A stretch of DNA of 64,000 bases, from positions 5,952,001 through 6,016,000 of the forward strand of contig OZ244960.1 in NCBI GenBank assembly GCA_965222605.1, read 5' to 3'. Numbering within the stretch: the first letter of the stretch is position 1; each line of letters begins with the position of its first letter. The notes under the pieces are model-generated. The model made no database searches. It was not told the DNA's origin and saw nothing but the letters and a program-made list of their open reading frames with translations. The DNA comes from Candidatus Latescibacterota bacterium. Its GTDB lineage: Bacteria > Latescibacterota > UBA2968. Shown here piece after piece: positions 7,101 through 64,000 of this stretch. The position numbers and the translations under genes are program-made.

Positions 7101-7762
7101 GGCTTGAAGCTCAGGTAGGAGCGGCAGAGGCCGATCTTGAGGAGCGTGCGACCGAACCGGAGAATGAGGCGGAAATGCCCCTGGCGGAGTATGGTCCACT
7201 TGCGGGAAAGAACAAGACAGCGAACGGGGGATTTGAAGTCAATTATAAGACGCATGACGAGGTCGAAGACCCCTGGGAGTGCTGGAACTCATATTACTGG
7301 GCAAAGTTCCGTCCTGCATATCATTACGATAGCGAGGTGGTGCATAGCGGAACGTATTCGCTCAAGATCCCGCGGGAAAACTGGGCGAATGAAGCGACGC
7401 GGGACGGGTGGATCGAGCAGAAGGTTTCCAGTTCTGGAGCGAACAAGACATATACGCTTTCTGCATGGGTGAAGTCGAGCCTGGATCCGACGCGCGTGAG
7501 GCTGTGCATCTACGGCTGGAATCCGGCGTGGGGGAGGGATTTCGATGGCGGCGTGTCGCCCCGGTTCGAGGTGGGTACGGAGTGGCAACGCATTAGTTGG
7601 ACGCGGAGCTTCGGTCCGGAGATCGCAGATGTATATGTGATGGTGAAGCGAGAGCACCAGGTGCTGGGCGGAGATGTGTGGATTGACGATGTGCAATTGG
7701 AAGAGGGTGGCAAGGCGACGGCGTTCGTCCTGGATGCGTGGACAGAGACGGCGCAGAGGTAG
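4193..7762 (+). CDS. Exported heparinase II/III / alginate-lyase-like protein with N- and C-terminal CBM4/9-like domains
   Basis: Lipobox-like VWAC. NGGFE...YIDDV / WIDDVQLEEG domains at both ends. Core motifs YALTGD..YA, EG.GYH.Y, AHNSIT.D. Confidence 0.75.
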   Translation: MKRHLCALLGVMLGAVWACSGHVKEVLEMMQPNEVPNGGFEADTDGMPDGWELDVDSDDFLFTGKLSTQSHSGRYSFCVEKGMGRRGTDLRSPHFDLKPDVAYEVSVWLRMDSRFPKDALRMQVRANTHSELFELSVGRSWRKSTVIFRTESGTTSGHIQFDQLGGLADRLYIDDVEVREIEAEDDRPPIQKTDLSEFVFPEHRPRLEHTSEEIEEIKQSMQGRDIHEHAWVENADPWLEKQLHFFEEGYDFKKYWTIGRHCPVDARLLEPIIHPDGTTEMKCPVCDRIYRNEEHRACARAMYNEQMARGAGWLGKAYALTGDVRYARRAAEILVGFAGRYKQWGGGGHAVLYMLRESNGFLIPCTTAYDYIYDSGVLSAGDRRKIEEDFFRVAGEYYSNHADTNGRMNNRGAIHNRNVMAIGSAINDRGFVDQALNSPHSGFHTLAARIFDPDGLAWEGFGYHTYTLVGLSPIAEMAYRIGINVYGDPAYRKVFEAPLQVFLPGEVDPESRHSLLDVYEIACRRFAELGEAIEFPFDKEDRVKVIPSSSFNFKHFGYGVLRSGEGEDQIYLSMSYGKEAMFMGHAPALKFGLVLYANRRLLTPRGMPSGYGHPLTGGWSRNPLAHNSITADDTDQWGRTEGKLIAFEAAPRVKLMRAVDNGAYGDIALDRTLFLTDGYVVDLSGAYAESGRHRYDLCYRSFGELSYPLPFEGREEPLGVGYGYQYLTDVRSKRTDETWSADWRQAEDSAVRLTVVGGPETEVIACTSPSNTDRDDDVNALIARRSAQRTVFAAVWEPYREKPFLSRIVSLPVKGEGNGSDQAGGVGVEVIENGSEATECFLASYTSGVKRYGDIELDGKVAAGCWGDSEEEPTYVYLVNGVLLRRNSYSVEASALASIYVERLAGDRLLVKTGDNGAGKMAIEGRLSDEVRVERDGEEVETEVGDAVVFEVAAQASYELSGVLEWERVRLEAQVGAAEADLEERATEPENEAEMPLAEYGPLAGKNKTANGGFEVNYKTHDEVEDPWECWNSYYWAKFRPAYHYDSEVVHSGTYSLKIPRENWANEATRDGWIEQKVSSSGANKTYTLSAWVKSSLDPTRVRLCIYGWNPAWGRDFDGGVSPRFEVGTEWQRISWTRSFGPEIADVYVMVKREHQVLGGDVWIDDVQLEEGGKATAFVLDAWTETAQR

Positions 7763-48546: not shown

Positions 48547-50109
48547 ATGACCAGAACCACACATAAATCGCCTATTTCTATTGACCGGAGGGATTTTATT
48601 CACCTGGCCGGGCTCGGCGCAATGGGTGCGCTTGTTCTGGGGCTGGATGTTCCAGTTGTCGCACAAAAACAACCCAATTTTATTTTTATGCTTTCTGACG
48701 ATCAGGGTTGGGATGGCCTTTCGGTACAGATGGACGATGCGATTTCCGGATCAAAGAGCGACTTTTATCAAACGCCCAATTTGGAGAAATTTGCACAACA
48801 GGGCATGCGTTTTTCGGCTGCTTATTCGCCTTCGCCTGTCTGTTCGCCAACGCGATGTAGTCTTCAAACGGGCAAGAGTCCGGCGCAGAACCGCTGGACA
48901 AAGGCAGCCCCAATTAAGACCGCCGCAGATGGCTATAAACTCATCCCGCCGATGCATGGCAAAAATCTCTCCAATAGTGAGACGACAATTGCTAAAATGT
49001 TGAAACAGGCCGGTTATGCCACAGCACATTATGGCAAATGGCATCTCGGTGGCGGTGGTCCTGGAAACCACGGGTATGACGTACACGATGGAAATACAGG
49101 GAATAGGGATGCGGCTCCTTTTATCGATCCCAATCCGGTAGATATCTTCGGTATGTCCAGGCGTGCCAATGCGTTTATGGAGGAGAATACAGAAGCTGGC
49201 AAGCCGTTTTTTATTCAGTTGTCTTATTATGCTCTGCATTATCCTCAGAATGCACTGGCAAGTACGAGGCAGGCATACGAAAATCGACCGAAAGGGCGCG
49301 TCCATCGGGATGTCAACCGCGCGGCTATTACTGAAGACCTGGATACAGGTGTGGGTATGATCATGGATCAAGTTGAGAAACTCGGCATAGGTGGTCACAC
49401 GTATCTGATTTATATGTCCGATAATGGTGCTGGCGGCAACCGGGGTGTATTGCGCGGTGGGAAGGGGTCTTTGTGGGAAGGTGGTATTCGTGTGCCGTTG
49501 ATCATCCAGGGACCTGGTATAGAGCCAAATACATTATGTCACGAACGCGTGGTCGGCTTCGATCTGTTTCCCACGCTTTGCGAATTGGGAGGTGTGAGCC
49601 AGTCTCTGCCTGCAGGTATTGAGGGCGGTAGCATCACGTCGTTATTATCTGGTGGCAAGGGCGCGGTCGAGAGACCTCATGAGGAACTCGTTTTCCATTT
49701 CCCACATTATCAAAGTGCAGATGGACCGCATTCAGCTATTGTGCAAGGCGATCTCAAGTTGATCAAGTTTTACGAGACCGATGACGTGCGATTATACGAT
49801 TTGGTCAATGATATCGGAGAACAAAATGACCTGTCCAAAGATATGGGGGAAAAAGCGATGCACCTGCGCGAACGCCTCGAACAGTATCTCGATTCAGTTG
49901 ACGCTCAGATGCCTGTGCCCAATCCGAATTATGGGACAGACAAGTCAAGTGATTTTAATGGTGATGGTCAAATTGATCTCCGGGATTTTCTCGAATTTGC
50001 CAGAGCTTATGGGTCGGAGGAAGCCCGGTTTGATCTGGACAATAGCGGGCGTGTGGATTTTGCCGATTTTTTGAAGTTTGTACAGGATTTTGGAGATGGT
50101 GGGAATTAA
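48547..50109 (+). CDS. Tat-exported sulfatase with C-terminal dockerin/EF-hand-like repeats
   Basis: DRRDF Tat motif, PNF...DD, CSPTR, GKWH, SDNG, EGGIRVP. Tail has DFNGDGQID and DLDNSGRVD. Confidence 0.92.
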   Translation: MTRTTHKSPISIDRRDFIHLAGLGAMGALVLGLDVPVVAQKQPNFIFMLSDDQGWDGLSVQMDDAISGSKSDFYQTPNLEKFAQQGMRFSAAYSPSPVCSPTRCSLQTGKSPAQNRWTKAAPIKTAADGYKLIPPMHGKNLSNSETTIAKMLKQAGYATAHYGKWHLGGGGPGNHGYDVHDGNTGNRDAAPFIDPNPVDIFGMSRRANAFMEENTEAGKPFFIQLSYYALHYPQNALASTRQAYENRPKGRVHRDVNRAAITEDLDTGVGMIMDQVEKLGIGGHTYLIYMSDNGAGGNRGVLRGGKGSLWEGGIRVPLIIQGPGIEPNTLCHERVVGFDLFPTLCELGGVSQSLPAGIEGGSITSLLSGGKGAVERPHEELVFHFPHYQSADGPHSAIVQGDLKLIKFYETDDVRLYDLVNDIGEQNDLSKDMGEKAMHLRERLEQYLDSVDAQMPVPNPNYGTDKSSDFNGDGQIDLRDFLEFARAYGSEEARFDLDNSGRVDFADFLKFVQDFGDGGN

Positions 50110-50126
50110 CAAAGAGGAGTGGCTCA

Positions 50127-51539
50127 ATGAAACGGAGAGAATTTCTCGGTGTGGTTGGTGCTGGTGTATGCGGGATGGCCGTTTCCAATGCGTTTGGTCA
50201 AGTTACGTCTAAGCGTTCCAATTTTGTATTTATTCAGGGTGAAGCGCAGGGTTGGACGAGTCTGTCTGTGCCAATGGATGATCGGGAGCCCAATTCGGCG
50301 AGTGATTTTCTTTATACGCCCAATTTGACGAAGCTGGCTGAAGATGGGATGCGTTTTTCGAATTTTTACGCGCCTTCCCCGCGATGCACACCGTCGCGAG
50401 TTTCATATCTTACGGGGAAAAGTCCGGCGAAATTGCGAATGACGTTTGTGAATCAAGTTGTTGGTAATACGAAACTGATTCCGCCAAGGCCCTTGTTGGA
50501 GATGCCGGTCGAAGAGATTACTATTGCCGATTATTTGAAACAGGAGGGGTATGTCGCGGCGCATTTTGGCAAGTGGCATATGGGGAGAAAAGATCCGGGT
50601 TTCCACGGTTTTGATGAGAGTGATGGCCCAAATAATAATGGTGGGCCTGAAAATGTTCGCGATCCCAATCCGAAGCAGGCGTATGCAATAGCCGAAAAAG
50701 GTATGGCGTTTATAGAGCGTCAGGTTGGAGCGAGAAATCCTTTCTATTTGCAGTTGGATCAATATTCGAGTCGGCGTGGAGAGCATGCCTTGCCGGAAAC
50801 GCTGAAGGAGATACAACAGCGTGCTGGTGGGACAGATAATAGGCGTTTGGGAGAAATAGCTGCTTGCCTGGATATTGATAAGACTATTGGTATGGTTCTG
50901 GATAAAATTGAGGAACTGAATATTGCCGATAACACGTATGTATTTTACTCTGCTGATCACGGCACGCCGGGACGGATGTCAAATGCGCCGCTGACGCTGG
51001 GGAAAGGCTCGGTTTGGGAGGGTGGTTTGCGCGTTCCACTATTGGTTCGGGGGCCGGGGATTATGGCTGGCGCGTTTGCTTATGCCCGGACAATGGGTAT
51101 TGATTTATTGCCGACCATTGCAGAATTGTCTCAGGGCAATAGCTCTTTGCCCGGGGATGTTGAAGGCGGGAGCCTTGTACCTATTTTGAGGAATCGGGGT
51201 AAAGGTGAAGTGAAGCGGTCACGCGAGGAACTCGTTTTTCATTTTCCACATTACGATATGGATCCCGCGGGACCTGCATCGGCAATTGTGTTGGGCAATT
51301 ACAAGCTGATCAAATTTTATGAGACCAATAAATTACACCTGTTTGATCTGAGTAAAGATATGGGTGAGAAGAACGATCTGGCAGATCGCAAACCAGAGGT
51401 TGTTGCGAAATTGCACGATCGGCTGAATGAATATTTATCCTCAGTTGATGCCCAAATGCCCCAGTCCAATCCGAATTACGATCCGAGTAAGCCGGTCGAT
51501 GAGCGAAGGCGGAGAAATAATCGGAGAAGGCGGGATTAG
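50127..51539 (+). CDS. Tat-exported sulfatase
   Basis: KRREF Tat motif, CTPSR, GKWH, ADHG, EGGLRVP. Confidence 0.9.
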   Translation: MKRREFLGVVGAGVCGMAVSNAFGQVTSKRSNFVFIQGEAQGWTSLSVPMDDREPNSASDFLYTPNLTKLAEDGMRFSNFYAPSPRCTPSRVSYLTGKSPAKLRMTFVNQVVGNTKLIPPRPLLEMPVEEITIADYLKQEGYVAAHFGKWHMGRKDPGFHGFDESDGPNNNGGPENVRDPNPKQAYAIAEKGMAFIERQVGARNPFYLQLDQYSSRRGEHALPETLKEIQQRAGGTDNRRLGEIAACLDIDKTIGMVLDKIEELNIADNTYVFYSADHGTPGRMSNAPLTLGKGSVWEGGLRVPLLVRGPGIMAGAFAYARTMGIDLLPTIAELSQGNSSLPGDVEGGSLVPILRNRGKGEVKRSREELVFHFPHYDMDPAGPASAIVLGNYKLIKFYETNKLHLFDLSKDMGEKNDLADRKPEVVAKLHDRLNEYLSSVDAQMPQSNPNYDPSKPVDERRRRNNRRRRD

Positions 51540-51989: not shown

Positions 51990-53555
51990 TTGATGAAAAT
52001 TCTTCTTACTTTTACGGGCTTTCATGACCCATATTCATTGGGTTTGGTTGGCGAAGAAGAGCAGCCTGGGCCCATTTTGTCTCTTATAGGGGCTGTGCCG
52101 TTTGACAAGGTCGTTCTCTTGTCAACACCTGCAACAGAGAGCCATACTGCTGGGACACGGGAGGCGCTTGAACGGACACATTCAGAGATATCTGTAGAAA
52201 TACTGGATTTTCCGCTTGCTGACCCTACGGATTACCATGCCATCATTCAGGAACTTCGAGAGAAGATTCCTCCGGTTCTGGGGAAATTCCCAGATGCGAA
52301 ATTCTCTATCTCAGTCGCCTCAGGGACACCGCAAATGCACGCGAGCTGGGTGCTCTTAACCGCTAGTGGAGAGATTCCTGCTCAGATCCTTCATGTTCGC
52401 CCGCCCAGGTTTGTTACGAAAGACCGACCTCTCGTATCAGAGGTCAAGCTGGCTCCGACCTATACGCAGCCTTTAAAGGAAGGGTTTAATCTCAAACTTG
52501 CTGAATTTCGACAAGAGTCAACAGCCCTCTTTTCACCAAGCGATGCGAAAGTGTCGGAAGTACCGGAACCCTACTTTACGCCAGATTTGGATGAAATCGT
52601 CGCGCAAATGGGGATTGTTGGAGAGCATCAGAGCGTTCGAAAGGCCATTGAAATTACGGATCAGCTTGCGGGATCAGACTTTCCGCTTCTTATTTTGGGA
52701 GAAACGGGCACGGGAAAGGAGTTATTTGCCAAACTTGCGCATCGGCTCAGTAGAAGGCCTCCAGACAAGTTTGTTACTTTGAGCAGTCCCAATATACCCC
52801 ATGAACTGGTTGAAAGTATGTTGTTTGGCCACAAAAAAGGCGCGTTTACCGGGGCTGTTCGTAATCAGACAGGTAAGTTTGAGCAAGCGGATGGAGGTAC
52901 GCTTTTTTTGGATGAAATCGGGGAACTCCCGCTGCCTACGCAGGCAAAATTGCTGCGTGTGTTGCAGGATGGTATTATTGAACCGCTCGGTAGCACAAAG
53001 AGCAAGCAGGTCAATGTGAGGATTGTTGCGGCGACAAATCGCGATCTGTTGGAAGAAATTAAAGCAGGAAATTTTCGGGAGGATCTGTATTACAGACTGC
53101 GAGGAGGAGAGATACGACTTCCTTCTTTACGGGAACGTAGAAGTGATGTTGGTAAGTTGGCACTGAATATCCTGGATCGCGTGAATGCCAGTTTGCGATA
53201 TCCAAAGCGGTTTACCCGGGAAGCCTTGAATCGTCTGGAGAGTTTTAGTTGGCCGGGGAATGTTCGTGAACTGGAATTTGTGATTGAGCGTTCAGCGCGG
53301 CTCGCTCGAAAGGAGTTGCTGGATGCAGATGACATCGTATTCGATGCGCCAGCTTCTGGAACAGACCCCTTTGCATCACTTCCGGAACCACATGATGGAT
53401 TCTATATGAACGATTATCTTAAGAGCGTGCGCAAGCAATTGATGCTTCGCGCCCTGGAAATTGCCAATGGGAATCAGAGCCAGGCGGCAAAGCTGTTGGG
53501 GGTTACGGCACAGGCCGTGCATAACTTCATCAAGGACGAAGATGGAAAGTCGTGA
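51990..53555 (+). CDS. Sigma54-dependent activator with RtcR/CARF-like N-terminal sensor
   Basis: GETGTGKE, GAFTGA, LFLDEIGE, FREDLYYRL, WPGNVREL and Fis HTH. N-terminus has TG.HDP...DPTDY...SGTPQM and no receiver domain. Confidence 0.88.
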   Translation: MMKILLTFTGFHDPYSLGLVGEEEQPGPILSLIGAVPFDKVVLLSTPATESHTAGTREALERTHSEISVEILDFPLADPTDYHAIIQELREKIPPVLGKFPDAKFSISVASGTPQMHASWVLLTASGEIPAQILHVRPPRFVTKDRPLVSEVKLAPTYTQPLKEGFNLKLAEFRQESTALFSPSDAKVSEVPEPYFTPDLDEIVAQMGIVGEHQSVRKAIEITDQLAGSDFPLLILGETGTGKELFAKLAHRLSRRPPDKFVTLSSPNIPHELVESMLFGHKKGAFTGAVRNQTGKFEQADGGTLFLDEIGELPLPTQAKLLRVLQDGIIEPLGSTKSKQVNVRIVAATNRDLLEEIKAGNFREDLYYRLRGGEIRLPSLRERRSDVGKLALNILDRVNASLRYPKRFTREALNRLESFSWPGNVRELEFVIERSARLARKELLDADDIVFDAPASGTDPFASLPEPHDGFYMNDYLKSVRKQLMLRALEIANGNQSQAAKLLGVTAQAVHNFIKDEDGKS

Positions 53556-53559
53556 AGAT

Positions 53560-53596
53560 TTAAACGTGGGTTGAAAAGGCTTTAACTTATCTTGAA
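53560..53596. promoter_or_regulatory. Tandem putative enhancer sites (TTxAA-N6-TTGAA, twice)
   Basis: TTAAACGTGGGTTGAA at 53560 and TTTAACTTATCTTGAA at 53581, starts 21 bp apart. Confidence 0.55.
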
Positions 53597-53628
53597 TGTA
53601 TCAGAGGAGGAAAATCAAGTTCGTATTT

Positions 53629-53731: not shown

Positions 53732-54013
53732 ATGGCAATGTTCAGAGTCGTAAATATAGTTGATGGAGACACATTTGATGTGTCGTCCTGGAAGTGGAAA
53801 GGACAGACAGGAACTCGGGTGCGCCCAACGGGTTACGATGCACCTGAGCTTTCATCATCTCAAGGACAAGCAGCTAAGAGAAAATTGACGAATCTAATTT
53901 TGGGGAAGGACGTTGAGTTGCGGCAGGCACACCGAATTGATAGAGGACGTCTCGTGTGCGACGTTTACTACAACGGGGTTTATCTGGCTCACTACTTTCC
54001 CGAATATCAATAG
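53732..54013 (+). CDS. Minimal staphylococcal-nuclease (SNase) family protein
   Basis: AGGAGG RBS. Motifs IVDGDTF, RVR..GYDAPE, GR.VCDVY. Confidence 0.8.
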   Translation: MAMFRVVNIVDGDTFDVSSWKWKGQTGTRVRPTGYDAPELSSSQGQAAKRKLTNLILGKDVELRQAHRIDRGRLVCDVYYNGVYLAHYFPEYQ

Positions 54014-54028
54014 GTGGGGTATATCTAA

Positions 54029-54874
54029 GTGAAGCGGAAATTTCAGGTCTGCAATGGCTATTATCTTGAATTTGAGCAACTTGCCAGAGTATTGAATTTT
54101 CTAAAAGCCAATCTTGATGCTAAAAAGATTAGTCGGGCTGATCTGATGGATGGGACAGGGCTCTCAGAGCGGCAGATCGAAAGTCTGGTAAGTGTTGGAG
54201 CTGCGATGGATTTGATTCAGCGTGGCAAGCAGATCCTTAGCGAGTCCGGTAGATTGATTGCCGAGAATGATATTTTTATTGAGGCAAAGGGATCTCTGGA
54301 ATGGTGTCATTACAAAGGTGCTGGTAATTATCGAAACCTAATCTGGTACGATATTTTTAATGTCATTCTTCCCTATGAATCGCCTATGACGTCTGAAGGG
54401 TGGATGGCCCATCTAAGGGAGATTTTGGCTGGGCAGTACACGGACAGGACGATTGGCAAGCATCTTCAAGAGGAAGTTCGTTTTGTTGAGAACGCATACC
54501 TTGAACGGAATTTTGGACGTCTTGAACTGCTGTATCAGAGTTCAGAGAATTTCATAAGCCGTCGCCGTCATTCTAATCCCGATCCCAAGGTTTTTGCCGC
54601 CATTCTCTACGCCTATGCTGAGGTTCATAATGCGAATTTGCATCAGGTAAAAGATCTTGTGGAAACGGTGGGTGCTCCAGGTTTTTTGTTTGCTCTCGAC
54701 GAGGGTACACTCAGATTGATTTTAGAGGAACTGCATAAGCGCGGTTGGATTCGCTTTGAGGGTACTCATAATCTGGATCAGGTTCGGCTGAAAAGCGAAT
54801 TCTCGTACCTTGATTTTCTCGCAGCCTATTATGAAGATCGCGAACCCGAGGCAAAATCAGTCTCAAAAGGATAG
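54029..54874 (+). CDS. DUF4007 family protein (SspB/BrxP-N-like)
   Basis: Winged-HTH pattern with LS..G.LI...D.F.E...LEW.HY...W...FN. Confidence 0.65.
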   Translation: MKRKFQVCNGYYLEFEQLARVLNFLKANLDAKKISRADLMDGTGLSERQIESLVSVGAAMDLIQRGKQILSESGRLIAENDIFIEAKGSLEWCHYKGAGNYRNLIWYDIFNVILPYESPMTSEGWMAHLREILAGQYTDRTIGKHLQEEVRFVENAYLERNFGRLELLYQSSENFISRRRHSNPDPKVFAAILYAYAEVHNANLHQVKDLVETVGAPGFLFALDEGTLRLILEELHKRGWIRFEGTHNLDQVRLKSEFSYLDFLAAYYEDREPEAKSVSKG

Positions 54875-54884
54875 GGACGCATTC

Positions 54885-55352
54885 GTGAATGATGGCATCG
54901 ATATTATCAAGCAGGCAAAGGGATTGCCCCAAAGACCAAGGGGTAGAGCGTGTATTGTTTTGACGCACAAACATGAGGAGCAAAGGGCCTGGGCTAAGGA
55001 ACTGGCCGTGCAAATGGGTGCACATCATCTCGATCTGTTGGATCATTTTGCATCTCATCCAGATTTGACAGAGAATATTGGGCAATTTACAATTCAGAAC
55101 CTGTTCGATTTGCTGTCCTCAATGAGGAATCAGAAGGTTTTGATTGTGACCGGTTTGGAGTTTTTGTTGGCAACATGGACGGGCAGTCCTAGTGCGATGG
55201 AGCAATTTGCGCATCAGATTGAATCCTGGGATAAATCGCCAGCCTTGCTGATTGTCATGCAATACGATGGTGCGCTGGCTACCAGAAGGTTCACACGATA
55301 CCCTCAGTATAAATTCGTTGTAGATCAAAAGGAGACGTTTGCACTGTTATGA
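54885..55352 (+). CDS. Small degenerate P-loop protein, BrxF-like
   Basis: 155 aa from GTG 54885, alpha/beta pattern with VLIVTGLEFL and no Walker A. Its stop overlaps the MTase start (ATGA). Confidence 0.45.
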   Translation: MNDGIDIIKQAKGLPQRPRGRACIVLTHKHEEQRAWAKELAVQMGAHHLDLLDHFASHPDLTENIGQFTIQNLFDLLSSMRNQKVLIVTGLEFLLATWTGSPSAMEQFAHQIESWDKSPALLIVMQYDGALATRRFTRYPQYKFVVDQKETFALL

Positions 55353-58300
55353 AAAATCAAGGTCTTTTTAGCACATTATTCATTGAAGACATTCAGAAAG
55401 AAACAGAACTGGACGATATGGGCGGGGGTCGTATGACCGCCCTGGCTCAAGCCTGGCAAGCGTGCAATCGAGGCTCTGCTGATGATCTATGGGAAAGTTT
55501 TGTCAAGCAGGCGGTTAGTTACCTGGAGTTCGCGCCGCGCGCTGCACCGGCTGTTCCTGGAATTTATCTCCTGTATGAAGATTGGGGATTTAGGAACTGC
55601 CTTTCAGTGCTTTGTCTTGTTGATCCAAAAGGAGATATGGATGATACGCGTGTGGGGCACTTCTGGGTTGGCAAGCTTATTGCCGAACTGAAGGCCTGCA
55701 GTCTCAATTGGGGCATTTTGACGGATGGGAGTTGCTGGCGACTTTATTCCTTAAAGACAGCAAAGCCCTATGAAGAGTACGTTGAATTGCCTCTATCGAA
55801 TGCCCTTGAAAACAATGACGAAGCCGAATATGCTTTGTTTGAGCATTTTTTTCATCGTGATGTTTTTGTGCCAGAGCGACCTGATGAAGATGAGGATGAT
55901 GCAGAAGATGAGAAGGCTACTGTCAAGGAGCTTTACAAGTGCCGTCTGGATAGAGATGGAGAGCAATCTGAAGAGATTCTGGAGGAATATGTAAAATCTC
56001 CACTGCTGAATCAGGTTGATGAAGTCCTCCAATATATCTGCAACGGATTCATTGCGGATACGTCCCGCAAAGGGGGAGAGTACACGGAAGATGAGCGCCG
56101 CGAGATCTTTGAAAGTGCCGTCAAACTCCTCTACCGGTGTTTGTTCCTTTTTTATGCTGAATCACGTCATCTGTTGCCCTCAGATACAGAAAAAACCGAA
56201 GTCTATGAAGAGGGGCTTTCGATTTATGCGTTGTGCCGGGAGGCACATGGTTTTCGTTGGGGGAAGCGTAGTGACCACGGAGAGTATGATCTCTGGCAGC
56301 ACTTGAAAGGGCTGATCAGCGCGGTGAACGATGGCGACTCAGAATACGGGATTATGGGATACGATGGTGGCCTTTTCGACGATGAAGAGGAACTCTTTCT
56401 TGGGCAGCATCGACTGCGGAATGATTTCCTTGCTCGTGCCCTTTATCTGTTGGCTTTCGTTGAGCCTTATAATTCTGATCCAGAAGAAGAATATGAGATT
56501 CCCTATGAGGATCTGGAAGTTCGGCATCTGGGAGAACTGTATGAGAACATCCTGGAATTCAACGTTATGTTGGCCGAAGTAGATATGGTTCGGGTGCAGT
56601 CCAAGAAAGGCACTCAGATCCTTCCAAACACCGAAGTAAAGCAAAGGGCGTCGTCGCGCCTAATAAAAAAAGGGGATGTCTATTTTGGCGAGACTGCACT
56701 TGAGCGGAAGCAGACGGGATCGTATTACACACCGGAGTCATTGGTTCATTTCCTCAACCAGAAGGCTATTATACAGCCCTTAAAGGAGCGCTTTGAAAGT
56801 GATTTCAGGGAGCGGTTTGATCAATTTCTGGAGCAAGCTACTGAAGGATTTGATTCGTCAACGCGGAGCGGGGCCGTTCAATCTGCAGTCGCACTGATAG
56901 AGCGATTCGTGAACGAGGTTGTTCTGGATTTTAAAGTTTGCGATCCGGCAATGGGCAGTGGGCATTTCCTGGTTAATGCGTCAAACCAAATGACGGTTCT
57001 GGTGGTCGATCTGTTTACAGAAATCCCGGTAGCTGAGGGATTCAACTCTGACTTGAATTGTGAGATCAACTATTGGAGAAGGCTGATCACTCGACATTGT
57101 CTCTATGGAGTGGACCTGAATCCTTTGGCAGTTCATCTGGCCAGACTTTCTCTCTGGCTGAACAGCTTTGCGAGGGATCATAAATTGACATTTTTGGATC
57201 ACCATTTGCGGTGTGGGAATAGTCTGATTGGAATCCGATCCCTTAGCCAGCTTCGAAAAATACCTAAAAGGAAAAAGGATCGTCGCAGAAAAACAGATCA
57301 GGAAGAGCTTTTTGATTTGACCCAGTTGTCAAGTATCCTTGATGTTGCTGCTAATACGACACTGAAGATTACCGAAGTTGATGAGGACGATACAGATAGG
57401 CAGAAAGGCATGTTCAGTCAGGCTCAAGATGCTACTGCCGATTTTCATCCATTGGCAGATCTGTTTACAGCCTATTTAATGGATTTAGACATTCAGATAG
57501 TTGATTATAGGGATCTCTTCGAATGTTTGGCAACCGGAAAGTCTGTTTCTAAGACTTTAAATCCTTACTTACCGGAACTTTTGGAATCTATCGGTGCTTA
57601 TCGTGAGAAGCACCAATTCTACCATTGGCCGTTAGAATTCCCTGATGTTTTCGCTCCTGGAGCTATGGGAGGGTTCTCTGCAACAGTTGGAAATCCTCCG
57701 TGGGATATTTTGAAACCTAATTCGCAAGAATTTTTCTATGCGTATGATTCAAAGTTCCGCTCCTATAATAAAAAGGAAGCTAATAGTGTATGCGAGAAAA
57801 TACTCAACCAGAATCTAAGTATACAAGCAAAATGGGAAGATTACTGCGCACGTTTTAGCCAACAGAGTTCATATACAAGGGAACCCTTGACATATCAATT
57901 TCAGGGCAGAGGAGACATAAATACGTACAAGCTTTTCCTTGAGCTGTTCTTTATTCTACTAAATGATAGTGGGTATATTGGCATTCTTGTGCCTAGTGGA
58001 TTATATACAGACCAAGGATGCGCACTGCTGCGAAGATTGTTCTTTGAAAATACGCATGTGGATAGTTTGTTCTGTTTTGAGAATAAAGGTATTTTCAATA
58101 TTCACAGAAGTTATAAGTTTGTCACCTTCTGTACAAGGAAGGGTGAATCTTCTGGTAGGCTCAAATGTGCATTTATGGAACACGATCCAGATAGCTTACC
58201 TCGATTAGAGAAGAATTCGCTCGAAATAAATGTAAACCAAATAAAGAAACTTGCCCCAGAGAACCTAAATATTTTTGAGTTCCAAAATCAACAAGAAATA

Positions 58301-58610
58301 GACATTATCGAGAAGATATATTCCGATCATCCTCCATTAGGGCAGAAATCCAACTCCCCCTGGTCTGTGCTGTTCACTAGAGAGATAGACAATATGGGTG
58401 ACATGGAGATGCTAAATCAAGATGGTTTCGGGGTCCCTCTGTATGAAGGAAAGATGATTCACCAATACAATCCAAACTTCGCCAAAAATAACTATTGGAT
58501 TGACCCGGATAGAGCACGAACAAAACTCAAAAAGTTTCCGGAACAAAAACTGATAAATGCGGATCATTATCGTCTTGTAAATCGCCGCCAAGCACGGACA
58601 ACCGATACTA

Positions 58611-59511
58611 ACCTTTGGTGCTAGTAGATAAGAAGTTGTAAGTCGCCAGAAGTTTACCTATGCTGAATGAGTTAGCACCTCATTCATTCACAGCAGGGAG
58701 GTAAACTTCATGACGACTGAAATGCTGATCATTGACCTGTTCTGTCGGGTAGATGATCAAACGCAAGACCTTGAGAAACATCCTCAAGCCAAGCTCTATC
58801 CCAGCGAAGTCATCACGTTGGCCTTGCTTTTTGCGATTAAAGGGGTGGGCAATCGCGCCTATTATGATTGGCTGATAAACGATTGGCAGCACCTGTTTCC
58901 TAACTTACCTCATCGCACGCGCTTGTTTCGCCTCTTTTTAAGGCATCAACACGCCACAAGCCGATTTTTAGCCGAAAAGAGCGTGTTGGGCATCATTGAT
59001 AGCTATGGCATTGAGTTGATTCATCCGATCCGAGAAGGCAGAAGTCCTGCTCAGATCGGGAAGAAAGGCAAATCGAATTATCGCTGGATTGTCGGTGGCA
59101 AGCTCTGTCTGTTGATCAATCAATGGGGTCTCATCGTGGATTGGGACTGTCAGACAGCTAATGTTCACGATACCACCTTCCACCATCTCATCAAGCAGGT
59201 GCAATCAGACATGGTCGTCTTTGCCGATGTCGGCTTTCAAAAAGCGCAAGACAACCCAGAAAACTTAAAAATCTGTCCGCGTGGCACTTGGAATGAGCGC
59301 ATGGTGGTTGAAACCATCTTATCTATGATGACGCTCGTGTGGCATTTTAAGAAAGTCATGCATCGGGTCTGGAGCTATTTTGCAATGCGATTGGCTTTTA
59401 CCATGGCCGCCTTCAATATCTTGGTACAATGGCAGGGCTTTAAACCCGATGAAGATGGGTTCATTAACCTTGCCATCGCACACTTCAGAATATAACACTA
59501 GCACCAAAGGT
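58611..59511 (+). mobile_element. IS982-like insertion sequence, 901 bp
   Basis: Perfect 15-bp IRs ACCTTTGGTGCTAGT (58611-58625, 59497-59511) with 5'-AC ends. 5-bp target duplication TACTA at 58606-58610 and 59512-59516. Confidence 0.9.
58710..59495 (+). CDS. DDE transposase (IS982-like)
   Basis: IDS, ANVHD, AD.GF, R..VET motifs, and it lies between the IRs. Confidence 0.88.
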   Translation: MTTEMLIIDLFCRVDDQTQDLEKHPQAKLYPSEVITLALLFAIKGVGNRAYYDWLINDWQHLFPNLPHRTRLFRLFLRHQHATSRFLAEKSVLGIIDSYGIELIHPIREGRSPAQIGKKGKSNYRWIVGGKLCLLINQWGLIVDWDCQTANVHDTTFHHLIKQVQSDMVVFADVGFQKAQDNPENLKICPRGTWNERMVVETILSMMTLVWHFKKVMHRVWSYFAMRLAFTMAAFNILVQWQGFKPDEDGFINLAIAHFRI

Positions 59512-60386
59512 TACTAGAGCAATGATTGCGTGTATTCTGCCACCTAATACATTCATGTGGGATAACCTAGCTGTTACGAGAATTCTTGATCCATATGATA
59601 ATGAAGGTAAAGGAACGCTCTTAAATGAACCGGAATTGTGCTATCTTGCAGCAATATTAAATTCTTTTGTCTTTGACTTCGCACTAGGGATGCAGATCAA
59701 TGCGAATCTTAGTTTCTTCATTGTCTATGGAATCCCTGTTCCACGAAAGGCAAAGGGCGATTGGTTTTTCGATAAGATAATCCCACGCGTCGCCAGGTTA
59801 TCTTGTGTTAATCCATCATATGCTCAATTATGGGAAGAAATATACCTGCCTTCTTGGGTAGAAAGTGAATTGTGGTATGAAAAGCAAGGTATAGGCTATG
59901 ATACATACGGACCTGTACATGAGAAGGAAATCCGCGAAAATGTGTTGCAGTCTTTGGGAGATCTCACTCCGATTTGGTCAGAGAAATGTACAGCCAAAGA
60001 TTGGAACTCAAACAAAATGGATATTACACATAGATCTCAATTCCGAGCAGAGTTGGATGCTCTTGTTGCCCACTTATATAGTCTGAGCAGAGAGGATTTC
60101 ACGCATATTCTTGACACTTTCGAGGCACTGAAGCGGAAAGAGGTCGATAACTTTGGGGAGTTTGTATCCAAACGGAAATGTCTGGAGGAATATGATCGGT
60201 TGACACCGGTCATAGAGGCGTGGAATGACCCAGGAAAGTCTGAAATTTGAATTGAAGGGTTGAAGCAATCGGGTATGTCGAAAACAGCTCTTGAATAACT
60301 CGGCTTAGGAGAACTCTGACCCATATATTGCTTCCACAGTTGATGTGCCAAGGAAAATTCTGCCAATTCTGAAGAGGAAAGAAGCG

Positions 60387-63300
60387 ATGAGCAAAATTAA
60401 AGAGGTGGTAAACCTAAAGACTGGCTACGCGAACTTCGTGGTGTTGAAAAGTGCCTTTGAAGAAAGCCAAGAGAATGCTGATCGTATGGCAATGTACCGT
60501 CCCACCACTGCGCATCGCAGAGCATTTGAGCGTCTCTGTCGGGGATTGTATCAGCCTAACGACAAAAAATTCTACTTACTCAGTGGATCGTACGGTACAG
60601 GTAAATCGCATCTTTGTCTGATGTATGCAAATGCACTCAGCCGATCCAGCGGTGATACAGAGATCAAGGGGTTTTATGACAACTATGAGAAACTGGATGC
60701 CAATGCAGCAAAGCAACTGAGAAATATCCGTAAGGGCGGTCAGTACCTGGTTGCGATCTGTGATTACCACTCGGGAAGACGGTTTGAGGATGTGGTGTTA
60801 AAGGCTGTTTTTAAGGCCTGTAAATCCAAAGATCTTGATGCAGAGGTAGAAACAGAATTTGACGAGGCGGAACGCCAGTTGACGGATTGGGAGAGGCAGG
60901 CAGAGGATCCCGCTGCGATCCGCAATTACTATGAAGACTTTTCCAAAGCCCTCGAACGGACTGCGCCAGGGTTGACTGTTGACCAACTTCGTGCCGGTCT
61001 GACTGATTACAATTCTGAATCTTTGGAGCAGTTTAGGGTAGCCTACAAGCTTGCCCAGGGGGGAACAGAATTTCAAGCACAATCGGGTAATCTCATTCCA
61101 ATTGTTCAGAAATTGGTAAGAAGCACGGCGTTCAAAGCTCGGTTCAAGGGACTGGCTATCTTGTTTGATGAGTTTGGATTTACTCTGGAAAAGGCGGCGT
61201 ATTCAAAGGATGTGCTTCAGGGATTCATGGAAACCATCTGCCGAAATGAACCCAATGTTGTTTTTGTAGGTTGTATCCATAAAGACTTCAAAGCATATGC
61301 AGACAGATTTAGTCGGGATGATGCCTCTGTGATGAGCGCACGAATCACAACAGTTGATCTTTTGAATGAAGGTATTGAGGAAATTATCGGAGCAATCGTA
61401 GAGACAGAAAAGACAGGTCAAGTCTGGAACAGCGAAGTGAAACCCAAACTCGGTGTGCTGGACGCTCTATTGCCTGTGTGTGAAACACTCAAACTCTTCC
61501 CCTGGATCCCAGATACCAAGCGAATTCGTCAGCGTGTGCTTGAGGACATTTACGGTGTCCATCCCGCTGCTCTTGCGGCTTTACTCAGACTGTCTTCTGA
61601 GATAGGATCTGACGCCCGCAGCACCTTCACATTTTTCTCTGGTGAGGTAGGCGGGGCTGAGGGTTCCTATGCGGAGTTCATTGAAGACAGCGACTTGCTG
61701 GACAGTAGTGGGAAACTGAACCTTTACATCGTGGATAGGCTTTTCACATTTTTCCAAGGCGAACTGTCTCCCAGCAATGCCGAGTTGCGCGACACGCAGC
61801 GTCAATTGGTCAACGGCTATGTTGCAAGTTTTGATGCCATGCAAAAGGCAAGCGAGAATGAGTTAGTGAATGATCGCGAGGCTCTGCAGACTTCGATTCT
61901 ACAAACTATTCTGATCTATCAGTTGTCGCAGATTCCCACCACTTTGGATAATATCCAGTTTGGCCTATATGCCCTGACTTCAGGAGAAAAGAAGATCATA
62001 GAGACAAACTTAGATCTTCTCGCCAAAACGGGTGCCGTGTTCTTCCGGCAACAGTCAAAGACTTATGAACTTGCTGTCGGAAGCGGTGTTGATCCCTACG
62101 ACCTGATAAATCGCTATCTGGAAGATACGTCTAAGCATCCTGAAGATATGGTCAAGGCATTTCTTTCTGAAGTGAAAAGTCCGGAGGTTCTGGATGCCAA
62201 GCAGCACAATCTTACCTATGGTGAAGACAAACGCTTTCGAACTGTCTATGTGAGAGCGAAAGATATGGGCGAAAATCTTTGGGAAAAACTCAAGAAGGAA
62301 CAATTGGAAGCAGTATTAAAGCCCAACAGTAGCTACGAGGGCGTTGCTGTCTATGCGCTTTGTGAAGATGTTTCAGATATTCAGGTTGCCCGCGAAGCGG
62401 TGCAAGATATTCCGTGCGACGATTTCGTCGTTGGTGTTCCCGATGAGCCACAGCCCTTTACGGAGATGCTTCTCAAAGTCAGGGCATGTAGAAATGCTCT
62501 TGATCCACTATCTGAAGAAAAGCTGAATGCGCAAACCGAATCACGCCTGCGGGATCTTTTTGAGAATCCACAGGATGGATTTCTGCCAACACTTCAAAGT
62601 ATTTTCAAGCAGATTGATAGTGGCGAAGGTGCATGTTGGTACAGTAAGTCTGGAAAAGTCGTTGTGGGTCAGCCAAAGCAGCCGCATGGACCAGTTGATA
62701 CGCTGTGCGAGCAGATGTTTACCAAACGCTGCAAGATTAATCACACAGATTTGAACTGGGTACACGACGATAAATGGCGCACGGCTAGAAACAATGCTTT
62801 GAGACAGGCAGTGAACACGCTTCTGCAGCCTGATCGCGTGCAGATTGACAACGGAAATCCAGCCAGCCATGGAGAAAAACGCTATCTTGAACGGGTATTG
62901 CTGAAAGGTGCAGGAGCATTGAGGAAGATCGATGATGATGGCCCTGTGACGTTCTTTTTTTGTGAAAGTGATTCCAAGAAAATAGACGATAGCTTCCCTG
63001 TTCTAAAGGAACTCTGCGAACGGTTGTCAAATCTCAATTCTGGAGAAAGTCTTCCTATAGGAACATTCATTAACGACGCCAAAAACGCACCATACGGTTC
63101 TGGCGGAACGGCGCTGATGCTTGCCCTGGCACATGCAGTGCGAGCTTTAGGTGAGCGGTTGAGAATCTATAAAGATTCCACTATGATCACTGAATATCCT
63201 GTTGAAGAATACGGAGAATTATCAGCGCTTGTGTCCGATCCTGCTACCAGTGTGGTTTTTGAAGTCCGCGAGATTTCTGATATCCAAAGAAAACTGGTGG

Positions 63301-64000
63301 AAGCAGTCGCTACTACGGTCGGAGCACCGCCACTCAAACATGGCGAAACTCGATCTTTGAATGAAACATTTGAGGTTCTGGAATCCTGGTGGCGCAGTGT
63401 ACCACCGGTGGCAAAGATCACAGAGATTTACGAGAAGAAACATACAGACGGATTGAGGAAGTTCAAGGACGCATTTGATGATATCCGCAATGGTGACCGG
63501 TATGAATTTCTTCTCGGAGGGCTGCCCGCAATTTACGAAGATGAAATTGCAGACGATAAGTTGACTGAGGATGGTGTGAATGCCATTTCTCAAGCATTTT
63601 CCGCACATGTCAAACATTTGAACACTGGCTACCAAATTGTTACAGACAAAGTTGCGGAAGCTGTTTCGGAGATGTTCGGCGAGAAGGGGGATCTTGTTCA
63701 ATGCAAAACCGCTGTCGAAGCCTGGTATGAGGAATTGACACCGAGACAGCGCCAGGCAATGACTTACCAGGACAGTCCGGAGGCTGAAAGCCTGGTTCGG
63801 ATCTTGGGGGATTCTTCCATAGACTTTGAAACTCAATTGACGAACCGTTTGCCAAAAGATTTCGGTTTGGGGGAAGTGTCGGATTGGCCTACCCTTCACA
63901 TTGATGATTATACGGCCAAACTGAAACAGGCACTGGAGGCTGTTGACGCTGCCGCCATTGTCATTGACCCCCCAGAAATTGAAACGGTTGGCAATGCAAA
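60387..64000 (+). CDS. Large P-loop ATPase, BrxC/SspC-like (partial, over 1200 aa, absent from the ORF track)
   Basis: GAGG RBS before ATG 60387. Walker A GSYGTGKS, Walker B LAILFDEFG and YGVHP are in one frame. Spot checks show the frame open to the window end. Confidence 0.85.
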   Translation, partial: MSKIKEVVNLKTGYANFVVLKSAFEESQENADRMAMYRPTTAHRRAFERLCRGLYQPNDKKFYLLSGSYGTGKSHLCLMYANALSRSSGDTEIKGFYDNYEKLDANAAKQLRNIRKGGQYLVAICDYHSGRRFEDVVLKAVFKACKSKDLDAEVETEFDEAERQLTDWERQAEDPAAIRNYYEDFSKALERTAPGLTVDQLRAGLTDYNSESLEQFRVAYKLAQGGTEFQAQSGNLIPIVQKLVRSTAFKARFKGLAILFDEFGFTLEKAAYSKDVLQGFMETICRNEPNVVFVGCIHKDFKAYADRFSRDDASVMSARITTVDLLNEGIEEIIGAIVETEKTGQVWNSEVKPKLGVLDALLPVCETLKLFPWIPDTKRIRQRVLEDIYGVHPAALAALLRLSSEIGSDARSTFTFFSGEVGGAEGSYAEFIEDSDLLDSSGKLNLYIVDRLFTFFQGELSPSNAELRDTQRQLVNGYVASFDAMQKASENELVNDREALQTSILQTILIYQLSQIPTTLDNIQFGLYALTSGEKKIIETNLDLLAKTGAVFFRQQSKTYELAVGSGVDPYDLINRYLEDTSKHPEDMVKAFLSEVKSPEVLDAKQHNLTYGEDKRFRTVYVRAKDMGENLWEKLKKEQLEAVLKPNSSYEGVAVYALCEDVSDIQVAREAVQDIPCDDFVVGVPDEPQPFTEMLLKVRACRNALDPLSEEKLNAQTESRLRDLFENPQDGFLPTLQSIFKQIDSGEGACWYSKSGKVVVGQPKQPHGPVDTLCEQMFTKRCKINHTDLNWVHDDKWRTARNNALRQAVNTLLQPDRVQIDNGNPASHGEKRYLERVLLKGAGALRKIDDDGPVTFFFCESDSKKIDDSFPVLKELCERLSNLNSGESLPIGTFINDAKNAPYGSGGTALMLALAHAVRALGERLRIYKDSTMITEYPVEEYGELSALVSDPATSVVFEVREISDIQRKLVEAVATTVGAPPLKHGETRSLNETFEVLESWWRSVPPVAKITEIYEKKHTDGLRKFKDAFDDIRNGDRYEFLLGGLPAIYEDEIADDKLTEDGVNAISQAFSAHVKHLNTGYQIVTDKVAEAVSEMFGEKGDLVQCKTAVEAWYEELTPRQRQAMTYQDSPEAESLVRILGDSSIDFETQLTNRLPKDFGLGEVSDWPTLHIDDYTAKLKQALEAVDAAAIVIDPPEIETVGNA

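Follow-up and report, generated by a model that had tools for sequence, protein, structure and literature searches.

A BREX-like operon in an acquired genomic island

We analysed a 64-kb stretch of a Candidatus Latescibacterota genome (contig OZ244960.1, positions 5,952,001 to 6,016,000; G000 contig C1:5952001-6016000 in our own numbering; hereafter the window), the right-hand end of which carries an operon related to BREX (bacteriophage exclusion) and Ssp defence systems. Positions are window coordinates unless L002 is named, a locus sequence that runs beyond the window end and whose position 7346 is window position 60345. A preliminary description had listed five co-directional, tightly packed genes in DNA of lower GC (guanine plus cytosine) content, encoding a minimal staphylococcal nuclease (SNase), a DUF4007 protein, a BrxF-like protein, an N6-adenine methyltransferase and a giant ATPase. 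The named genes are all present on the plus strand, and GC content is 45.5% from 53732 to 64000, compared with a genome value of 51.0%. The count of five needs amending, as the region from 53732 to the window end reads as seven open reading frames (ORFs), with the methyltransferase gene interrupted by an insertion sequence (IS) at 58606-59516:

53732-54013, plus strand: 93-aa ORF
54029-54874, plus strand: 281-aa ORF
54810-55352, plus strand: small ORF, whose homologues place the true start at 54882 and give 155 aa
55349-58624, plus strand: 1091-aa ORF
58710-59495, plus strand: 261-aa ORF
59522-60250, plus strand: 242-aa ORF
from 60345, plus strand: ORF still open at the window end

The junctions between the first operon genes measure 15 nt and 7 nt, followed by a 4-nt overlap, and the operon continues past the window, as had been expected. 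Its full order is mini-SNase, DUF4007 protein, 155-aa protein, methyltransferase split by the IS, SspC/BrxC-like ATPase, PglZ, BrxL and terminator. The features from the DUF4007 gene onwards are as follows:

54029..54874, plus strand: DUF4007 protein, SspB-like and like the C terminus of BrxP, by Pfam and PADLOC
54882..55352, plus strand: 155-aa degenerate P-loop protein in a presumed BrxB/BrxF-like role, by homologues and structure model
55349..58607, plus strand: N6-adenine methyltransferase, N-terminal 1086 codons (type IIG/DrmMI/PglX-like), by Pfam and PADLOC
58606..59516, plus strand: 911-bp IS inside the methyltransferase gene, with an IS982-like transposase ORF at 58710-59495
59517..60250, plus strand: methyltransferase, C-terminal 244 codons, in frame with the N-terminal part after removal of the IS
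60345..64000 (L002 7346-11458), plus strand: SspC/BrxC-like AAA+ ATPase, 1370 aa, ending 457 nt past the window
L002 11455-13872, plus strand: PglZ, 805 aa, overlapping the ATPase gene by 4 nt
L002 13887-15866, plus strand: BrxL, 659 aa, with a phospholipase D (PLD)-like tail, 14 nt after the PglZ gene
L002 15895-15924: terminator with a 13-bp stem, 29 nt past brxL

A PglZ-domain protein and a large AAA+ ATPase of the BrxC/PglY type stand together in this operon, which is the minimum for the BREX superfamily. We consider it likely that the locus is a six-gene member of that superfamily belonging to no named type, lying in an acquired island behind an RtcR-like regulatory head, and that with its IS-split methyltransferase it is a probably non-functional copy.

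The island spans 21.2 kb, from window position ~51,560 to the window equivalent of 72,788, at 45.9% GC, a value at or below that of 98.7% of 21-kb windows of the genome. Genus-conserved DNA picks up again on both flanks, and a search of 168 genomes of the phylum with the PglZ protein matched its own genome alone, with no similar locus in the other 167. The island is strain-specific, horizontally acquired and presumably anti-phage. The preliminary description had proposed looking further along for pglZ, brxL, a helicase or sspD; the first two genes are there, and Pfam and PADLOC scans of the island ORFs find no helicase domain, no PAPS (3′-phosphoadenosine 5′-phosphosulfate) reductase and no cysteine desulfurase. 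A genome-wide search with the BrxP model has as its sole match a CysH-like gene at C1:5249860, ~750 kb away, and the PADLOC BrxP model run over the 168 phylum genomes returns short CysH-like matches only, leaving no type 4 BREX for comparison. Apart from BrxL, no island protein reaches the cut-off of a type-specific NCBIfam BREX model.

The left flank (48547-51539) holds two conserved sulfatase genes, one of them encoding an EF-hand/dockerin-like segment at its C terminus. The site itself varies among congeners, G083 having ~7.8 kb and G084 ~2.5 kb of other DNA there.

Components of the operon

The DUF4007 assignment stands on profile search, with a Pfam score of 57.4 bits against a cut-off of 27 (E = 1.7e-15). 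In PADLOC the protein matches SspB (1.5e-8) and BrxP (3.1e-8), the latter aligned at model positions 628-775 of 779, and searches against PDB sequences return nothing significant. By analogy, it would take a DNA-binding role of the BrxA type. Many family members carry a longer DUF4007 protein of 464-554 aa (L048 8535-10004, L089 429-2093, L077 8607-10001 and others), and in two of three scanned the N-terminal extension matches UPF0758_N, a RadC-type helix-hairpin-helix.

For the BrxF-like label that the preliminary description gave to the next gene, direct searches offer nothing: the small protein has no match in Pfam, PADLOC or NCBIfam, none to BrxF at E ≤ 0.1, and no Walker A motif. Support is indirect and comes from relatives, fold and a complex model. 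Homologues form 88 clusters of 154-155 aa, and a profile search of 1.84 billion representatives gave 111 relatives, all of them standalone proteins of 31-181 aa. Distant relatives (hmmsearch E 2e-12 to 1e-4) keep the motifs GxxGxGK[ST] and hhhhD, four of 12 scanned proteins, distant relatives themselves, match PADLOC BrxF (1.1e-5, 1.9e-4, 7e-4 and 0.043), and the equivalent small gene of a sister locus on an Abditibacteriota plasmid retains Walker A and Walker B motifs. Homology of the window protein to BrxF appears to be only transitive, through these Walker-A-bearing relatives, and the protein has the appearance of a BrxF-type ATPase that lost its catalytic activity, as BrxB did in type 1 BREX.

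The structure model of the small protein (predicted local distance difference test, pLDDT, 91.7) is an AAA+/RecA-like alpha/beta domain. Its fold matches are generic, with a top Z of 8.0 and a Z of 6.8 over 138 aligned residues for BrxB chain 9zll_G, and Foldseek against PDB gives none at E ≤ 0.001, the best being the FtsH AAA+ domain at 1.3e-3. Modelled with residues 1-360 of PglZ, the small protein forms a complex scoring 0.85, where the best of three controls scores 0.00; among 157 solved complexes 116 attain this level, and among 215 mismatched pairs 2 do. Contacts agree to 94% or more between model runs, the partner has a pLDDT of 88 or higher, and the modelled PglZ interface uses the most conserved segment of the small-protein family, residues 92-100; a conserved E-F-L-x-A-T-W stretch lies at this interface. 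A BrxB-PglZ complex has already been solved (9zll), so the pass may reflect likeness to that structure; read with this in mind, the model supports binding of the small protein to the PglZ N terminus.

The start codon of the methyltransferase gene overlaps the stop codon of the small gene. Its product is an adenine methyltransferase, as the preliminary description had it, with Pfam matches to Eco57I (7.9e-21), MmeI_Mtase and N6_Mtase and PADLOC matches to REase_MTase_IIG (3.1e-81), DrmMI (2.9e-76) and PglX (1.1e-9). Scores for the PADLOC PglX and PglXI models are much lower than those for type IIG and DrmMI, NCBIfam BREX_1_MTaseX reaches 52.9 bits against a cut-off of 500, and PDB sequences yield nothing significant. 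The motifs DPAMGSGHF and GNPPW are kept in 20 of 21 aligned methyltransferases, the plasmid sister having ANPPY; we take DPAMGSGHFLV to be the S-adenosylmethionine-binding motif I and GNPPW the catalytic motif IV of gamma-class N6-adenine methyltransferases. A possible N-terminal nuclease motif reads D...ELK in the window copy. Across the 21 sequences its E column holds Q, H, A or E and its K column K, R or Y, and, the motif not being conserved, we do not favour an active type IIG nuclease in this N terminus.

The IS that splits this gene has terminal inverted repeats of 20 nt (95% complementary) and encodes a DDE transposase that matches NCBIfam IS982 at 1.9e-19, under the cut-off. Excision of the element along with one TA dinucleotide copy restores an uninterrupted reading frame of 1330 codons, in agreement with the 1287-1374 aa of intact homologues; the C-terminal piece gives weak matches to type IIG and type II methyltransferase models, at their C-terminal ends. 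The genome contains 11 copies of the element (a further one lies, for example, at C1:3592483-3593393), ten at 100% and one at 95% identity. Identity among the copies suggests a recent insertion and points to a recent transposition burst in this genome. With its methyltransferase split, the system is probably non-functional, and this copy of the operon inactive, in this strain.

The giant ATPase carries the predicted P-loop and DEFG motifs, as Walker A LSGSYGTGKSH and Walker B ILFDEFG. Its PADLOC score for SspC is 131.9 bits (5e-39) against 39.1 bits (5.4e-11) for BrxC, and phmmer links it to a Treponema SspC (75.5 bits); taken with the SspB and BrxP C-terminal similarity of the DUF4007 protein, this upholds the pairing of an Ssp-like scaffold with an adenine methyltransferase that the preliminary description had proposed. 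PglZ is matched by PADLOC (1.4e-6, 25 bits) and by NCBIfam BREX_PglZ_4 (4.9e-7), its best PglZ model, and scores 17.9 bits against a cut-off of 270.35 for BREX-1 PglZ type A; 21 of 23 homologues bear a precomputed PF08665 label. Searches of PDB sequences, including the solved type 1 BREX proteins, give nothing significant for either the ATPase or PglZ. BrxL exceeds the TIGR02688 cut-off (431.1 against 329.3 bits), contains BrxL_N (1.6e-26), BrxL_ATPase (3.4e-98) and a C-terminal, PLD-like MIT_C domain (5.3e-46), matches the solved Acinetobacter BrxL at 2.1e-54, and carries in its tail HDRMIEAD, an HxRxxxxD motif. This PLD-tailed HxRxxxxD form of BrxL stands here outside a type 1 BREX context, though the sections consulted of a 2026 BREX survey (PMC12839542) call the variant type 1-specific.

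Past the terminator and inside the island lies a separate gene pair encoding an SbcD-like phosphoesterase and an SMC/Rad50-like ATPase of 806 aa (L002 16213-19742, window equivalent 69212-72741), the latter with PADLOC matches to LmuB and AriA. A generically similar SbcD and SMC pair, at ~25% identity, closely follows brxL on a BREX-1 plasmid of Rhodovulum (L110). We ruled out the pair as part of the operon on account of the strong terminator that separates it from brxL, the Rhodovulum likeness being generic.

Conserved gene order among relatives

A metagenome contig scan with alignment of the small protein confirmed 142 relatives, 80 of which were kept. Among the 33 long loci (at least 6 kb, some of them duplicate assemblies of one sequence), every one contains a DUF4007 protein, and the order DUF4007, small protein, methyltransferase is the same in 33 of 33, with the small gene and the methyltransferase gene usually overlapping or abutting at their start and stop codons. 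Twelve of the long loci extend as far as the ATPase and seven as far as PglZ. A distant sister on an Abditibacteriota plasmid comprises a methyltransferase, DUF4007, a small Walker-A protein, the ATPase, PglZ and a short BrxL; identity to the window is 28% for the ATPase and 55% for BrxL, and the plasmid record annotates every gene except brxL as hypothetical.

In many related loci (L023, L048, L058, L071, L077, L089, L094 and others) a variable cargo slot opens between the methyltransferase and the ATPase, holding YhcG/DUF1016 nuclease, GmrSD, Schlafen/AlbA_2, AbiEi/AbiEii, NACHT, AAA_21 with DUF4276, or Fic genes. The window IS sits near the junction where related loci have this slot.

These neighbourhoods bear on whether the methyltransferase belongs to the system at all. 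An independent type IIG restriction-modification enzyme might have come to lie, by chance or through island assembly, within a decayed type 4 BREX/Ssp remnant that has lost its PAPS reductase. The best models of the large enzyme are indeed type IIG REase-MTase (3.1e-81) and DrmMI, defence islands stack unrelated systems, the related loci carry unrelated cargo beside the enzyme, and Yuan et al. raise a like caveat, in the sections consulted, for a Fischerella locus where a methyltransferase, possibly independent of the phosphorothioate (PT) genes beside it, accompanies dndBCDE, brxL, brxZ and sspB (PMC12914056). Against such a juxtaposition, the methyltransferase follows the small gene in all 33 long loci, all six genes are retained, though rearranged, in the plasmid sister, the candidate nuclease residues vary, and the island holds no PAPS reductase remnant. 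We regard a chance association as very improbable, and favour a methyltransferase that is part of one six-gene system.

Comparison with BREX and Ssp systems

The locus shares DUF4007, an SspC-like ORC/Cdc6-type ATPase, PglZ and a BrxL of the TIGR02688 kind with type 4 BREX and with the 'sspBCDB-brxCZL' and 'dndBCD-brxCZL' islands named by Yuan et al. 2026 (PMC12914056). It differs from type 4 in having neither PAPS reductase nor cysteine desulfurase and, in their stead, a ~1330-aa N6-adenine methyltransferase inside the operon. Its DUF4007 protein is standalone, with no PAPS reductase domain fused or adjacent such as marks BrxP, and its BrxL has a PLD-like tail that type 4 BrxL is said to lack (PMC12839542). 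The sections consulted of that survey, by Rakesh and Krishnan, describe type 4 as being without any methyltransferase and DUF4007 as BrxA-like, and its main text places DUF4007 only in type 4 and in a HerA-centred system (PMC12839542).

Two PT-type plasmid loci, of Thermomicrobium roseum and Pseudanabaena, run sspB, sspC, PAPS reductase, second DUF4007, small protein (166 and 142 aa), large ATPase, PglZ, BrxL and cysteine desulfurase. They share with the window family the succession DUF4007, small protein, big ATPase, PglZ, BrxL, and by this comparison the locus looks like the layout of an 'sspB-brxCZL' arm with a methylase in place of the sulfur writer. The large 'BrxC' proteins of Thermomicrobium (L114 12798-17003, 1401 aa) and Pseudanabaena (L115 5836-11247, 1803 aa) show no GxxxxGK[ST] Walker A by simple regular expression; the adjoining SspC paralogues do carry it.

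To type 3 BREX (brxF-brxC-pglXI-brxHII-pglZ-brxA) the locus may be linked through its small protein, by the transitive homology to BrxF, whereas the island lacks the BrxHII helicase and BrxA, contains BrxL, and encodes a small protein that has lost its Walker A. With SspABCD-SspE/SspFGH it shares an SspB-like DUF4007 protein and an SspC-like ATPase, the best PADLOC matches of both being Ssp models, but it has PglZ, BrxL and a methyltransferase instead of SspA, SspD, SspE and SspFGH. Judged by sequence, the full locus matches neither Ssp nor any of the six BREX types, in keeping with the earlier suspicion of an undescribed variant. In the article texts searched, we found no name for the methylase version and no use of 'BREX type 7/VII', and the consulted portions of papers on DUF4007, and on SspB with PglZ, a methyltransferase and BrxL, give no description of this layout.

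Type 1 BREX (brxA-brxB-brxC-pglX-pglZ-brxL) calls for the closest weighing, since the locus might simply be a highly diverged member of that type, its six genes filling the known roles (A-like, B-like, C, X, Z, L) without claim to separate status. The roles presumed for its six genes match one to one, methylation is the presumed self mark in both, and the small inactive P-loop protein predicted to sit on the PglZ N terminus mirrors the BrxB-PglZ contact. Both also have BrxL, including the variant with an HRD-type (HxR...D) PLD-like domain, which the survey sections consulted report as type 1-specific and as present in 1030 of 2913 type 1 taxa (PMC12839542); a Rhodovulum BREX-1 plasmid has such a BrxL, 31% identical to that of the window. 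The differences are nevertheless many. DUF4007 occupies the place of BrxA and the 155-aa protein that of BrxB, with no match to BrxA (DUF1819) or BrxB (DUF1788) in any island ORF by Pfam, PADLOC or NCBIfam. The methyltransferase and PglZ fall far short of the BREX_1_MTaseX and BREX-1 PglZ type A cut-offs, and neither they nor the ATPase significantly match solved type 1 BREX proteins. The ATPase is nearer SspC, scoring three times as high as for BrxC, the methyltransferase gene precedes the ATPase gene, and DUF4007 lies outside type 1 in the survey's main text. We think a type 1 assignment unlikely and prefer a system of no named type.

Several points weigh against that preference, beginning with the type 1 likenesses just given, on the strength of which a curator might file the locus as a very divergent type 1. 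BrxB ranks only 15th among the fold matches of the small protein, behind a phage packaging ATPase at the top (Z 8.0). The identity of PglZ is weak but consistent: a Pfam scan gives nothing at E ≤ 0.01 and BREX_PglZ_4 reaches 28.7 bits against a cut-off of 140, so that gene position and the precomputed PF08665 labels stand behind the call. No related metagenome locus reaches brxL, and BrxL membership is therefore seen only here and in the plasmid sister. By phmmer, the window ATPase and PglZ have no similarity to the 'BrxC' and PglZ of Thermomicrobium and Pseudanabaena and BrxL alone is linked, so the statement that the arm is the same rests on gene order, DUF4007 and BrxL. A search of the 600 bp upstream of 31 related loci gives no sigma-54 promoter. 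Methylation, defence and induction are all properties that we infer for this locus.

The regulatory head

Ahead of the six genes stands a regulatory head:

51990..53555, plus strand: RtcR-like activator (CARF, sigma-54 AAA+ and Fis-type helix-turn-helix (HTH) domains), by Pfam and PADLOC; first gene of the island
53557..53598, plus strand: two enhancer-like repeats (resembling upstream activating sequences), directly 3′ of the regulator stop codon
53671..53686, plus strand: consensus sigma-54 promoter TGGCAC-N5-TTGCT, 45 nt 5′ of the SNase start codon
53732..54013, plus strand: mini-SNase, 93 aa, with a staphylococcal-nuclease fold; part of the regulator head

The regulator has the complete RtcR domain set (CARF, sigma-54 AAA+, HTH), with Pfam matches to Sigma54_activat (1.3e-63), Cas_Csm6_CARF, RtcR and HTH_8 and a PADLOC match to RtcR_PspF2--CARF_AAA_HTH (2.1e-126); it lies below the cut-off of the NCBIfam RtcR equivalog NF038308 (301.7 bits against 650). 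None of 20 congeners has an orthologue at E ≤ 1e-80. The genome, 98.7% complete, contains rpoN and no RtcB (PF01139) anywhere, and the regulator therefore has no rtcBA operon to control. The sigma-54 motif is the single match on both strands of the 64-kb window, where 0.05 are expected and 5 of 100 shuffles contain at least one.

An SNase at the front of the operon had been taken for a component of the system. The fold part of that claim holds. The protein lies under the gathering score of Pfam SNase PF00565 (17.3 bits against 21, E 0.0069), SNase matches at E ≤ 0.01 occur in seven of 24 homologues, and a family profile finds no SNase chain among PDB sequences at E ≤ 1, which made a fold search necessary. 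In that search the structure model (pLDDT 93.0) has 269 Foldseek matches in PDB at E ≤ 0.001; the top rows are to staphylococcal nuclease (E 1.6e-5, template modelling score 0.64-0.70, 23-26% identity), as are all 50 rows listed, in the form of its variants. Going by the model, the fold is that of SNase. The family comprises 775 clusters of ~94 aa, very conserved at 66-84% identity, some of them named thermonuclease family, and the viral contigs searched contain none. Membership of the BREX-like system is the part that fails: the mini-SNase is absent from all 82 related or reference loci searched and travels with the regulator, and sequence comparison places it in the regulator head, not in the BREX-like family.

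A genome of the same class, G039, has a comparable head: a regulator 59% identical, two palindromic repeats, TGGCACGTGGCTTGCA and a mini-SNase. In the window the repeat GATTTAAACGTGGGTTGAAAAGG is followed by a degenerate second copy, and the two can be aligned with a pair of TTTCAACCGTGGTTGAAGA copies at the equivalent place in G039, where the sigma-54 element recurs with equal spacing. In G039 (L123 8186-10084, L124 1-3767; contigs C162, C505) the head is followed by a second payload of HsdR-like, HsdM and HEPN genes, and this recurrence before another payload marks the head as a portable module. The repeats may act as enhancers, and from its position the head probably switches on the BREX-like operon by signal-induced transcription. 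In one related locus, L090 (2269-4217), a sigma-54 activator with 34% full-length identity is followed by an HU/IHF-like gene of 94 aa and then by DUF4007; Pfam finds no CARF domain in the activator at 1e-4, and no sigma-54 promoter is seen there by eye.

The arrangement recalls the RtcR-headed defence superoperons known from CoCoNuT systems (Bell et al. 2024, PMC11090510), which likewise have a CARF/AAA+/HTH sigma-54 activator 5′ of a long co-directional defence operon and interchangeable restriction systems downstream. The present locus differs in having no CoCoNuT/McrBC genes, a BREX-family payload and a conserved mini-SNase directly behind the promoter. The operon could on this pattern be chiefly cargo of an RtcR-headed superoperon, the selected unit being the inducible head and the BREX-like genes one interchangeable payload without any particular tie to it. 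The type I restriction-modification and HEPN genes behind the same head in G039, the known CoCoNuT superoperons, the promoter's absence from the 31 related loci and the confinement of a related regulator to L090 all argue for this; regulator and operon, on the other hand, share low GC content and a single insertion in this genome. We find the case for such a cargo relation evenly balanced. It concerns how the modules relate and does not compete with the BREX-like identity of the operon. RtcR control itself, given the 31 loci without the promoter, is a trait of this island and not of the family.

Proposed mechanism and implications

A mechanism can be sketched by analogy with tested type 1 BREX, where methylation is lost on deletion of brxB or brxC. 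The roles would follow in the order DUF4007 (BrxA/SspB-like), small P-loop protein (BrxB/BrxF-like), methyltransferase (the PglX role), SspC/BrxC-like ATPase, PglZ and BrxL. The methyltransferase, aided by the DUF4007 protein and the ATPase, would mark a short motif in host DNA; the small protein would dock on the PglZ N terminus; and incoming DNA without the mark would then be blocked or cut by PglZ, the ATPase and the BrxL ring. The scaffold would correspond to the 'sspB-brxCZL' arm, elsewhere paired with SspBCD or DndBCD phosphorothioate writers and here with a methylase writer. With the RtcR-like activator, the repeats and the sigma-54 promoter in front, transcription would probably be signal-induced.

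A wider conjecture, which we offer tentatively and rate as somewhat short of probable, is that DUF4007, the small P-loop protein, the SspC/BrxC ATPase, PglZ and BrxL form a modification-agnostic exclusion arm that serves SspBCD, DndBCD and N6-adenine methylase writers alike. The window family might then be an unnamed seventh BREX type common in uncultured anaerobes, and the locus the first BREX-family system placed under an RtcR-type CARF/sigma-54 switch, inducible by RNA damage or a nucleotide signal and not constitutive.

These possibilities touch on the way BREX halts phage and on the sensing of the self mark by its effector half. If one effector arm does work with writers as unrelated as backbone sulfur and base methylation, that would argue against recognition of the mark by the arm itself, and for its being told of unmodified sites by the writer or the DUF4007 module. 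The family is abundant, with 142 confirmed stretches in a single metagenome scan and 111 representative clusters of the small protein. Its head in this genome, composed of RtcR, sigma-54 promoter and mini-SNase, would add a second example class of inducible defence superoperons beside the CoCoNuT loci.

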